DNA from: an uncultured Chlamydiales bacterium
GTDB lineage: Bacteria; Chlamydiota; Chlamydiia; Chlamydiales; Rhabdochlamydiaceae
Length of the DNA stretch: 64,000 nucleotides
Assembly: GCA_963700985.1 (NCBI GenBank)
Contig: OY969554.1
Coordinates: forward strand, 1,568,001-1,632,000
Direction: 5' to 3'
Part shown: in pieces, positions 8,899-12,125 of the stretch
How the letters are laid out: each line of letters opens with the position of its first letter
How positions within the stretch are numbered: position 1 is the stretch's first letter
Notes under the pieces: generated by a model
The model's input: only the letters and a program-made list of their open reading frames with translations
The model's database searches: none
Told to the model about the DNA's origin: nothing
Program-made: the position numbers and the translations under genes

Positions 8899-11103
8899 AT
8901 GGCATCAGCAGTCTCAAGTGCTAAACCAGCAGCAGCACTTCCTATCCCTGACGGTTTAGCAACGCTTCTTGCTTCTCCCAAAACTCCCTGGCAGATTAGT
9001 CCGAACCTCTTCGAACGCACACGTAAATTAGCTAGCAGCGATGCAACTAAACCCTATGTAGCTTGTCCTGTTTCACCCTCAGATCCTGAATATGATTTTG
9101 TCGTGAAATACTTTTTAAATCAAAAACCTCCCGGATTGGGCATTCAGAGCATCGAATGCATCCACAATCCCGTTCAGACCCAAATGTTTGAAGTTGCACT
9201 TTTAAGTATGGAAGCGGGAGCCAAGAGCTTTCCTCCTTCATGGATGAATGAAGAACCCAAGGAAGAGCGTGCGAGCACCATCGCAAGATGGAAAGCACAA
9301 ACCCTCCAGTTTTCTCCTGTTAAAATCGAATCAGCCGAGAAGACCAGAATGATCGTGACCGCCAAAGTCATCCCTCTTTGGCATGGAACTCCACGCGATG
9401 ATGCGATCTGTTCCAGCGGATTTACTTTTTTTGGAAAGTATAAATTAGCCACAACCCAGAAAGGAATTGATCCAAGCACTGATGATGGCTATTTCGGTAG
9501 CGGTGTTTATTTTACCGACAGTGCTCATTATGCCTCGATGTACAGCTCCGTCTTACTTCTCAACTGGGTCTCCATGCGCGAACCCTTTCCCGTGGTCAGC
9601 GATGTACGTATTCCAAATGTGGGATCAGATATGCGTGGACTTAGGGCAAAAGCCGCATACAAGGATTATAACTGCCACTTTATTCCCGTAACCTCAGTAG
9701 ATCCAAAAGACCCACAAAACATGATCTACCATCCCTGTCATAGCACAGAGCAGCCCGACTGGGATGAGTTTGTTGTCTTTCAGTCTGCTCAAACCCTCCC
9801 GCGTTTCAGAGTAAAGCTAGGGGTGGACTTTCCTGCCGCACCTTCAACTCCGTCCCTAAGTGTAACTGTAAAAACCCTCCAGGGCAAAATTTTAGATCTC
9901 CTTGATGAAGATCAAATCCAGCAAGATGAAGATCTTCGAATTCTTTTATCCGAAAAAGCAGATGCTCTCGGTTTAGTTTCAGACCAGAGCAGCCCACTCT
10001 CACTTCAAGATCTAGAGTTTTATAATTGGATAGAACAACTCATCAATCCGGCAGGAAAACTCCGCGGCCATGTCAAACAAAAACTCGTTCAGAAGCCCAG
10101 CAGCGAAAAACTAGAACACAAAAAACCCTCTCCTCTATCAGCAGCACCGAGTGCTCTAAGTTGGGAGCCTTCTCCATCCGCTACGGTTAGCGCCGCAACT
10201 CCAGCAAAAAAAGAAGAAAACAAGAGCTCCGTCCCTCCGCTTTCTAAAACACCTCTTGTTAAAGCTCCTAGTTTTTGGAATTCCCTTTGGAGTGGAAAAT
10301 CCACACCGAGCTTCGTAGCTCCTGCAAAGAAAGAAGAGAACAAAAGCCCTGCTCCTCCGCATTCCATGTCTCTTGCCAAAGCCTCTCCCCTAACTGCAAA
10401 AGCAGCTACCTCAGTTAGCACGGCTGATCTGAAAATGCTATTTCCAAAGCTAGAAGTTCTCGATGAGGCAATTTGGGAAACGCATGTGAATTTAGATGCT
10501 TTAGGAATGTCCATAAAAGACGCAGCGCCTATTGATGCGAACACCATCTCCGTTCTGAAAACCCTCTTTGCTTCTCTCCTGATAGAAGGAGATGCGGGAA
10601 TCACGCTTTTGACCATGCCGAGAGGGCTTACACTGAACAAGCTCGTGAAGCTTGCAGCGTTTCCTAAACAGGGCAATGAAGCTAAATTTAGGTACATTTG
10701 GGATGAAGTTTTAAAAGTGCTTGGAGACATTCCCGTTGACAAGACTTATCGAGTGGCGATCACAAACTGTGTGCTCGAAGGAAGTAGAGATTTATCTGTA
10801 GATATGCAGCACGAGCTCGTAAAGAAAATGGGCTGCGAAATGACCGGAATGTTACCGGCAGCTACGCTTGCTATTTTAACCTATATGAGTTCTCGAGAAA
10901 AATCCCCAACCCGTCTGTATAGCAATGAGCCGTATGCCTATACGCGTTGTGTAGAGCAGATTGGTGGGCCTAACTTGGTTGGGCGCAACTTGGTTGTTGG
11001 GGGCTTCATCCCGAATGGCCTCGAGATCAACTTCAGCCTCCACCACGTCCTCTATCACTTTGGCGTTGGAGGGCAGTGGACGTTCCCAGCCATTGATACT
11101 TGA
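8899..11103 (+). CDS. Putative effector: PARP-like ADP-ribosyltransferase domain, Ser/Pro/Lys linker, C-terminal CLec-like domain with DGR-type variable region
   Basis: LWHGT (H162), GYFGSGVYF (Y204), DEFVVF (E290) then QTLPRF; low-complexity linker; C-terminal YTRC..LVVGGF..GL..GVG segment with an NNC codon run. Confidence 0.75.
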   Translation: MASAVSSAKPAAALPIPDGLATLLASPKTPWQISPNLFERTRKLASSDATKPYVACPVSPSDPEYDFVVKYFLNQKPPGLGIQSIECIHNPVQTQMFEVALLSMEAGAKSFPPSWMNEEPKEERASTIARWKAQTLQFSPVKIESAEKTRMIVTAKVIPLWHGTPRDDAICSSGFTFFGKYKLATTQKGIDPSTDDGYFGSGVYFTDSAHYASMYSSVLLLNWVSMREPFPVVSDVRIPNVGSDMRGLRAKAAYKDYNCHFIPVTSVDPKDPQNMIYHPCHSTEQPDWDEFVVFQSAQTLPRFRVKLGVDFPAAPSTPSLSVTVKTLQGKILDLLDEDQIQQDEDLRILLSEKADALGLVSDQSSPLSLQDLEFYNWIEQLINPAGKLRGHVKQKLVQKPSSEKLEHKKPSPLSAAPSALSWEPSPSATVSAATPAKKEENKSSVPPLSKTPLVKAPSFWNSLWSGKSTPSFVAPAKKEENKSPAPPHSMSLAKASPLTAKAATSVSTADLKMLFPKLEVLDEAIWETHVNLDALGMSIKDAAPIDANTISVLKTLFASLLIEGDAGITLLTMPRGLTLNKLVKLAAFPKQGNEAKFRYIWDEVLKVLGDIPVDKTYRVAITNCVLEGSRDLSVDMQHELVKKMGCEMTGMLPAATLAILTYMSSREKSPTRLYSNEPYAYTRCVEQIGGPNLVGRNLVVGGFIPNGLEINFSLHHVLYHFGVGGQWTFPAIDT

Positions 11104-11156
11104 ACACTTGAGATTTGGGCTGGTCATTTCAAAAAAGAATATATAGACATTCTCAA

Positions 11157-12125
11157 CTACCTCAAGAGAGATATAACTTGGGGCGTAGCATAAGAGAGGA
11201 TAAAATCTGCTCCGGCGCGCTTCATGCACATCAGTGCTTCTAAGAAAACCGATTCGGCATCTAGATAGCCTTTTTCGTGAGCCGCCATTACCATGGCATA
11301 TTCACCTGAGACATGAAAGGCGCAGATAGGGATGTGCAGCGTCTGGCGAATTTTGCAGATGACATCTAGATAAAAAAGACCAGGCTTCACCATCAGAATA
11401 TCCGCACCCTCTTCAGCATCAAGAGTTGCTTCTAAAAGCGCTTCGCGAATATTTGCGGGATTTAACTGATATCCGCGTTTATCTCCGGAAGTTAGTTTTG
11501 AGCCTAGAGTGTCGCGGTAAGGCCTATAAAGACTCGAGGTGTATTTAGCCGTATAAGCTAAAATGCCAGTCTCGTGCTTGCCGTGCTTGTCAAGCAGGGT
11601 GCGGATTGCGCGCACTCTGCCATCCATCATGTCGCTTGGGCCAACAAAGTCTGCTCCGCAAGCGGCATGCAAGAGCGCCATGCGCGCTAATATCTCGACA
11701 GAGCGGTCATTGTCGACTTCGTTATTTTCTCCTAGTACGCCGTCGTGGCCGTGCGAGGTAAAAGCATCGAGCGCTACATCGGTGATCACACAGAGTGAAG
11801 GGAGTTCTTTTTTTAGAATTTTTAGAGCTTGCGGAACAACGCCTTCTTCACTGAGCGCGCCGAGGCCAAGCGGATCTTTTTTTTCTTTTGGTGTTACGGG
11901 AAAAAGTGCAATTGCGGGGACGCCCTTGCGGTGCAGTGCTTCAGCTTCTTGTACAAGCTGATCAACTGATAGGCGGAAAACGTTAGGCAGATTTTCGATT
12001 TCTTCACGGCGGTTTTTGCCTTCTACCACAAAAAATGGTGCCACCAAATCTGCCGCCGACAATGTAGTCTCCTCCACCATCGAGCGAATCGCCGCACTCC
12101 TTCGATTTCTTCTCGGACGTATCAT
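11157..12125 (-). CDS. hemB: Porphobilinogen synthase
   Basis: Motifs RPRRNR, TSHGHDG, PSDMMDGRV, EGADILMVKP, HVSGEYAM. Confidence 0.97.
   Translation of the reverse strand: MIRPRRNRRSAAIRSMVEETTLSAADLVAPFFVVEGKNRREEIENLPNVFRLSVDQLVQEAEALHRKGVPAIALFPVTPKEKKDPLGLGALSEEGVVPQALKILKKELPSLCVITDVALDAFTSHGHDGVLGENNEVDNDRSVEILARMALLHAACGADFVGPSDMMDGRVRAIRTLLDKHGKHETGILAYTAKYTSSLYRPYRDTLGSKLTSGDKRGYQLNPANIREALLEATLDAEEGADILMVKPGLFYLDVICKIRQTLHIPICAFHVSGEYAMVMAAHEKGYLDAESVFLEALMCMKRAGADFILSYATPQVISLLR

Follow-up and report, generated by a model that had tools for sequence, protein, structure and literature searches.

A probable fossil variable region of a diversity-generating retroelement on a PARP-like protein of a chlamydia-like bacterium

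The DNA analysed in this study, hereafter the window, is a stretch of 64,000 nucleotides from the genome of an uncultured Chlamydiales bacterium of the family Rhabdochlamydiaceae (assembly GCA_963700985.1, contig OY969554.1, positions 1,568,001 to 1,632,000 of the forward strand), and positions given below are those of the window unless a contig or locus is named. At 8899..11103 on the plus strand, the list of open reading frames (ORFs) contains a gene for a 734-aa protein with a PARP-like N-terminal domain, a Pro/Ser/Ala-rich linker and a C-terminal domain of predicted CLec/FGE fold. Positions 10993-11085, at the tip of the C-terminal domain, are in all likelihood a fossil (orphan) variable region (VR) of a diversity-generating retroelement (DGR), and one that is not currently hypermutable. 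In DGRs, adenine-specific mutagenesis of AAC codons of a template repeat (TR) yields NNC codons. The reading developed here is based on homology to the VRs of intact cassettes in related genomes, on the codon composition of the paralogous domain copies in the same genome and on a relic of a repeat array downstream of the VR.

Homology to active variable regions and codon signature

Among 300 scored genomes of the same phylum, the C-terminal domain was found in 75 and a PF00078 reverse transcriptase (RT) also in 75, and at least 10 genomes have a short RT no more than about 1 kb away from a domain copy. Eight RT-adjacent loci of related genomes (L081-L088) were examined. Self-comparison revealed repeat pairs of 83-95 bases in seven of them, comprising 10 VRs in total, while the contig of the eighth stops just past the RT. 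As many as 97 of the 107 mismatches between TRs and VRs fall at TR adenines. In the cassette-bearing relatives (G077, G274, G146, G172, G088, G030 and G054), the VR makes up the final ~30 codons of an ORF whose product ends in ..LVVGGFAAGGLxVxxx..GVGGLRKF, the TR follows the pattern ..GGC CTC AAC GTC AAC AAC AAC .. GGC GTT GGG.., and the TR/VR pairs begin at GTTGTTGG and finish at CGGAA. All seven cassettes adjoin a target, the TR and the RT being no further than about 2 kb from it. Six RTs are full-length; they measure 346-363 aa, score 65-82 bits on PF00078, share 52-70% identity with one another and all carry LGNVTSQ and Y[CS]DD. The motif [LIV]GxxxSQ is a hallmark of DGR RTs. A sequence-only reading of this DNA had proposed that the gene is, or descends from, a remote DGR target, a proposal to be given up if neither this genome nor related ones held a TR or an RT. 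Related genomes carry both.

The targets of these cassettes include proteins similar to the one encoded in the window. In G077, which belongs to the same family as the present genome, one TR is accompanied by three VRs, and the targets are two PARP-like proteins (PF00644, 28 bits) and a protein with U-box and TPR. One G077 target is 41% identical to the window protein over aa 28-429; over aa 577-729 the figure is 36%. The DGR targets are an F-box protein in G088, two proteins with weak F-box matches in G274 and an LRR protein in G030. One VR of G077 (L081:11825-11917) differs from its TR by one base in length and contains an in-frame stop, and the target ORF ends inside this VR.

Window 10993-11085 on the plus strand (GTT GTT GGG GGC TTC ... 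GGC CTC [core] GGC GTT GGA GGG CAG TGG ACG TTC) aligns in register with the VRs of these verified TR/VR and RT cassettes and has scaffold codons in common with them, and an nhmmer profile built from the seven TRs matches it at E 0.0049. Its variable core, 13 codons at 11023..11061 on the plus strand (EINFSLHHVLYHF), is the counterpart of the AAC-rich segment in the TRs of the relatives (CTC AAC GTC AAC AAC AAC ...) and has C at the third position in 10 codons, T in two and G in one. The core holds a run of C-ending codons, codons 710-718 (11026-11052), which read in frame ATC AAC TTC AGC CTC CAC CAC GTC CTC; all 14 codons from 710 to 723 (11026-11067) are NNY. The run sits between GGFIPNGL and GVGG, 12 codons ahead of the stop, in agreement with the sequence-only reading. 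That reading had also seen no such run elsewhere in the gene, which holds for runs of C-ending codons, the next longest having four, and fails for NNY runs, for codons 193-212 form one of 20 codons (9475-9534, STDDGYFGSGVYFTDSAHYA). This longer run lies in the conserved PARP-like core and, since it is kept among homologues, is unrelated to DGR activity.

When the codons of the gene were shuffled 20,000 times, runs as long as these came up with P = 0.002 (at least 9 C-ending codons) and P = 0.08 (at least 14 NNY codons). Among the 1545 ORFs of the genome (at least 150 aa, ATG-started, in six frames, spurious ones counted too), 20 contain such a C-run and 85 such an NNY run. The lone codon run is only mildly unusual and is weak evidence by itself; the codon signal is decisive only across the 11 paralogous copies of the domain.

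These 11 copies, ten found by protein search of the genome (2,067,302 bases on one contig, 99.03% complete) and the eleventh by nhmmer at C1:1024469-1025413, are spread over nine genes. The copy in the window is the C-terminal ~220-aa domain of predicted CLec/FGE fold (aa 510-734, 10426..11100 on the plus strand). Beside the window gene, which is PARP-like with one domain copy, the genes encode two PARP-like proteins with two CLec domains each (C1:2059805-2062597 and 2062803-2065622), a Sel1-repeat protein, two F-box proteins and three proteins without a recognised N-terminal domain. Each of the two tandem-domain PARP-like paralogues has one internal VR-like loop, after which a linker takes the place of the stop. 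The N-terminal part of the Sel1-repeat protein resembles the PARP-like paralogues by eye, and Pfam recognised no PARP domain in it.

The domain body is well conserved across the copies, with a mean column identity of 67%, and the stretch between GGFxPxGL and GVGG consists of unrelated residues and is of variable length. In these cores, C occupies 95 of 146 third positions (65%; T 30, G 14, A 7) and codon positions 1 and 2 are of mixed composition, as against 333 of 1985 third positions (17%) in the domain bodies (Fisher P = 5e-35). Copy by copy, 10 of the 11 have 6-12 third-position Cs in 12-17 core codons, the outlier being '713' with 5 of 16. The invariant codons that flank the core, TTG GTT GTT GGG GGC TTC, GGC CTC and GGC GTT GG, are free of A. 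The copies therefore show variable NNC/NNY codons between A-poor invariant codons, as in a DGR variable region, and an NNC core with A-free flanks is what adenine-specific mutagenesis of AAC template codons should produce.

Two further features were observed just upstream of the VR-equivalent stretch. Window 10966-10995 contains a tandem 15-base duplication (GGG CCT AAC TTG GTT / GGG CGC AAC TTG GTT), which is translated to GPNLVGRNLV, and five of these codons are absent from most of the nine other aligned copies. In addition, three variable NNC codons form a second, small patch immediately before TTG GTT GTT, at 10981-10989 and in the paralogues of the genome. This patch lies outside the TRs of the relatives examined; an ancestral TR of this lineage may have been longer.

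The region downstream of the VR provides a further point of comparison. All 10 active VRs are followed by a TTG(G) array, the spacing of which is about 7, 8, 7, 13-14, 8, 7 in seven of them (those of G146, G030 and G054 deviate in the second half), and 59 TTGG were counted in 10 x 90 nt, where the loci would lead one to expect 5.8. The array often leads into a GC-rich hairpin with a CGAAG-type loop. It may serve this DGR clade for recognising its targets; TTGG arrays in such a role were not found in the published literature searched. A relic of the array is present in the window at 11093..11118 on the plus strand, with four TTG at spacings 7, 8, 7. Among the other copies in the genome, C1:1807393-1807480 retains a near-full array (7, 8, 7, 12, 8, 7), and several have kept CTGCGGAAGTT ends together with TTGG arrays resembling those of active VRs. 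The 3' end of the window copy is CAGTGGACGTTC, where active VRs and most paralogues have CTGCGGAAGTTC. The usual stop after ..RKF is lost and the ORF extends for five codons (PAIDT), and the gene's stop (11101-11103) consequently lies within the array relic.

The domain that carries the VR was modelled with AlphaFold2 from an alignment of 76 family members (pLDDT 95.3, pTM 0.93). In a VIA-align run against 48,161 PDB representatives, all 50 rows listed were CLec/FGE-fold chains, including SenA (Z 8.3, 135 aligned, rmsd 3.3), EgtB (Z 8.2), pFGE (Z 7.5) and the solved DGR variable proteins Treponema denticola TvpA (2y3c; Z 7.5, 148 aligned, rmsd 4.0), Bordetella phage Mtd (1yu0; Z 6.5) and Thermus aquaticus TaqVP (5vf4; Z 5.8). 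This uniform match list supports a predicted CLec/FGE fold, at the level of fold similarity, for aa ~510-734, the part for which such a fold had been anticipated.

State of the element and competing explanations

No machinery for continued mutagenesis was detected in the genome. The PF00078 search returned 0 RT candidates, tblastn with the six relatives' RTs gave a best E of 0.053 over 44 aa, and a six-frame RT profile search gave a best E of 1.1; a PF00078 RT is likewise missing from the two other genomes of the genus (G031 and G112). A DNA search of the genome with 10900-11130, by which a template repeat was sought, found only paralogues at 75-82% identity, ending near 11029, and no template repeat, and nhmmer with the seven-TR profile found only VR-like gene ends and no TR. 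The absence of an RT and a TR, first noticed in the window, thus extends to the whole 99%-complete genome. A fuzzy scaffold search returned, besides VR-like gene ends, two scaffold-like 18-mers (C1:639983 and C1:528171; 2-3 mismatches), which were rejected, as they stand in no AAC-rich or VR-like context.

The VRs are also static between two assemblies. The allele of the window protein in the second assembly (P0003) has 20 residue differences, all in aa 12-401 and none in aa 402-734. The two double-domain paralogues differ between the assemblies at 2 and 7 residues, none of them in a VR, and 0 differences were found in five VRs. A third source, a 91-aa Logan fragment, agrees with the window protein at every residue of aa 644-734. 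Contigs of three public runs were aligned to 10300-11250, and those of X1, which may stem from the source sample, are identical there; as contigs are blind to population variants, no conclusion was drawn from them. The X2 contigs are short, come from paralogues or relatives and give no cover over 11036-11067, one of them beginning at 11070. With no RT or TR in the genome and the same VRs in two assemblies, the suggestion that the tail is hypermutable now has to be dropped. Of the two possibilities offered by the sequence-only reading, descent from a DGR target is borne out by the homology to verified VRs, those on PARP-like proteins included, while a present-day target is disfavoured by the missing RT and TR.

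At least two of the 20 changes in P0003, V157A and I158L, coincide with what a paralogue has at these positions, and the paralogue P0002/P0157 is itself polymorphic for this pair, which suggests gene conversion among the PARP-like paralogues. The PARP-like parts of the paralogues are 95-96% identical. It is possible that gene conversion has evened out the domain bodies, and most of all the PARP-like parts, but not the variable regions.

We propose the following course of events. An ancestral DGR RT would have copied an AAC-rich TR with adenine-specific errors, and the mutagenised cDNA would have replaced the window stretch, turning AAC codons into NNC codons. Such mutagenesis would leave unrelated loop residues that nevertheless have C at third positions, between A-poor invariant scaffold codons. 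The RT and the template would later have been lost from this genome, freezing 11 variable regions in nine genes, and decay seems to have set in at the window copy, which shows an altered 3' recognition end, lacks the usual stop and retains only half of the downstream TTGG array. We infer that the window copy itself was once mutagenised.

Several observations weigh against this interpretation. No cognate TR is available, hence adenine specificity is untestable on the window copy and the case consists of homology and codon bias. The core length ranges from 12 to 17 codons among the copies of the genome, where a single TR would give one length. At conserved residues, codon pairs are identical in 148 of 248 cases (60%) in the VR scaffold and in 2374 of 3160 (75%) in the domain body; the scaffold codons, being less alike than the body codons, do not look as if a shared TR had recently made them uniform. 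Pfam recognised no Avd-type accessory protein in seven small ORFs beside the relatives' TRs. As for the fold, the VIA Z values of at most 8.3 are middling by the tool's own scale, and with neither of the two models did a Foldseek search of the PDB reach E <= 0.001, its best rows being C-type lectins and EgtB. Finally, an RT on an unassembled plasmid or phage is compatible with the data.

The varying core lengths and the scaffold synonymous sites that escaped homogenisation also suit a different origin, in which the hypervariable loop arose after duplication through ordinary mutation, indels and diversifying selection, with a C bias due to gene conversion or strand bias and no retroelement involved. 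The mosaic of N-terminal differences among the paralogues, suggestive of gene conversion, points the same way. However, third-position G is not raised in the cores (14/146), so a general GC effect is not seen, the A-free scaffold with NNC variable codons is exactly that of the relatives' TR/VR pairs, and the relics of the downstream array are common to active VRs. An origin by ordinary divergence is therefore improbable.

We regard it as slightly less probable still that the gene is an active remote target, whose loop is diversified in trans by an RT and a TR residing on a plasmid, a phage or an unassembled region. One DGR can serve several targets, as the single TR and three VRs of G077 indicate, a one-contig genome could miss extrachromosomal replicons, and the recognition ends and arrays kept by several copies would fit continued use. 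On the other hand, the 99%-complete genome holds no RT, RT remnant or TR; the relatives' seven cassettes all adjoin a target, those of G077, G274 and G146 on contigs of 0.5-2.6 Mb; the five identical VRs belong to assemblies that differ elsewhere; and the window copy has an altered 3' end, a lost stop and a halved array. Chance or ordinary codon usage as the source of the C-ending run, for which the 20 long ORFs with comparable runs and the longer NNY run in the gene's own PARP-like domain might be cited, is scarcely credible, because the loop is rich in third-position C in 10 of 11 copies despite unrelated peptides (65% as against 17%) and coincides with verified VRs. A fossil VR thus remains the preferred explanation for window 10993-11085.

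Carrier protein and domain family

The N-terminal domain of the window protein is predicted to be a PARP-like (H-Y-E type) ADP-ribosyltransferase domain. Its catalytic region, aa 154-306 (9358..9816 on the plus strand), matches PF00644 at E 1.9e-5 with 24.7 bits, under the Pfam gathering cut-off of 26.7; homologues exceed the cut-off (28.1, 28.2 and 33.2 bits), and the PARP-like paralogues in the genome score 26.1 and 23.6 bits. H162, Y204 and E290 are invariant in six homologues and lie within WHG, GxGxYFT and DExVVF motifs; we tentatively take them to be the H-Y-E catalytic triad. The likeness to PARP14 and PARP4 consists in the match over aa 154-306 and in these three residues, and the difference in the score below the cut-off and in weak profile matches to PARP14 and PARP4 in the PDB (E 0.07-0.6). 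The 400-aa N-terminal part alone gave no match to PDB sequences at E <= 0.1. With the PF00644 match and the invariant motifs, the earlier description of a CLec-type tail joined to a PARP-like domain stands.

The Pro/Ser/Ala-rich linker (10180-10400, aa ~430-500) contains a repeated PAKKEENKS motif, and comparable linkers occur in the paralogues. On the minus strand, a 117-aa ORF (10876-11229) runs antisense across the VR and the gene end. It is probably spurious, because its G-starting codons mirror the C-ending run.

Beyond this genome, searching 1.84 billion cluster representatives with a profile brought up 1604 proteins of the domain family at E <= 0.001, 818 of them at E <= 1e-10. Pfam was run on 29 family members chosen for varied lengths, and the fusion partners were F-box (7/29), HEAT (4/29), protein kinase (2/29), NACHT or NB-ARC (2/29), U-box (1/29), BTB (1/29) and PARP (1/29), with no Pfam family in 10/29. 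The consensus of the ~290-aa members contains an F-box that matches Skp2 in the PDB (E 1.5e-10), and the domain-family profile matched only F-box proteins among PDB sequences, through the N-terminal F-box of the family. The ~220-aa C-terminal domain itself matched no Pfam family. The CLec domain family is large yet without a Pfam model, and is therefore invisible to routine annotation.

Relation to known systems and biological meaning

What is known of DGRs concerns mostly the diversification of receptor-binding proteins in phages and of surface or signalling proteins in bacteria, and variable proteins of the TvpA, Mtd and TaqVP type occur in phage tail-fibre or lipoprotein contexts. The window domain resembles these three proteins in its predicted C-terminal CLec/FGE-type fold, in having the variable residues within the last ~30 codons and in NNC codons that would derive from AAC template codons. 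It differs in that it has no sequence-level match to them or to any PDB chain, in its fusion, together with its paralogues, to PARP-like, F-box, U-box and Sel1 modules, and in the absence of an RT and a TR from the genome. With the cassettes of the related genomes, it shares the domain family, the VR position, the scaffold codons and the downstream TTGG array, whereas these have a TR and an RT of 346-363 aa and the genome of the window has neither.

According to the excerpted text of Domman et al. (2014; PMC4209131), families of F-box, U-box and BTB proteins have expanded in environmental chlamydiae, and LRR tails are described there for F-box and BTB families. As in those families, a eukaryote-like ubiquitin-ligase adaptor domain lies N-terminally in expanded paralogue families of intracellular bacteria; the C-terminal parts described in that excerpt are LRR, TPR or CHAT tails, whereas here a CLec-fold DGR target domain takes this place. 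The same excerpt makes no mention of a reverse transcriptase, a retroelement or a lectin. In the excerpts of PMC8144416 (Roux et al. 2021) and PMC3521204, Chlamydiae appear only within a PVC or 'Chlamydiae/Verrucomicrobia' tally of DGRs, and the main text of PMC8144416, supplements apart, mentions neither ubiquitin, U-box, ADP-ribosylation, effector nor symbiont. PMC3417536, which alone came up in the literature search joining DGRs with F-box, brings 'chlamydia' and DGR together only through its reference list, as far as its excerpt goes. Among the matches listed for DGRs and obligate intracellular bacteria, none was on chlamydiae by title or abstract start, and among those listed for DGRs and chlamydial genus names none carried a DGR term. 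DGR cassettes targeting CLec domains on F-box, U-box or PARP-like proteins of intracellular bacteria were thus not found in print, supplements apart.

Three matches to the TLC ATP/ADP translocase family were found in the genome, and such translocases fit an intracellular way of life; together with the eukaryote-like domains borne by the family's relatives, they make a chlamydia-like obligate intracellular bacterium the probable source. A search for Chlam_PMP repeats (PF02415) as a marker of the taxon returned no match. We infer that the window protein is delivered into the eukaryotic host cell, where the CLec tip would bind a ligand, probably a host protein, and so aim the PARP-like domain. 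In broader terms, we tentatively propose, as a serious possibility that falls a little short of the expected answer, that chlamydia-like intracellular bacteria use DGRs to hypermutate CLec binding tips on F-box, U-box and PARP-like effectors, with the TTGG array as the recognition element of the cassette and with 11 frozen products in the present genome. DGR machinery is here tied to modules (F-box, U-box and PARP-like) seemingly built for action inside a eukaryotic host cell. The orphan state of the element further indicates that NNC-rich C-terminal loops can mark past DGR activity in genomes without an RT. Provided that the host target is chosen by the CLec tip, these cassettes would be a mutational engine for re-aiming host-directed enzymes, and the frozen copies would record the specificities that were retained.

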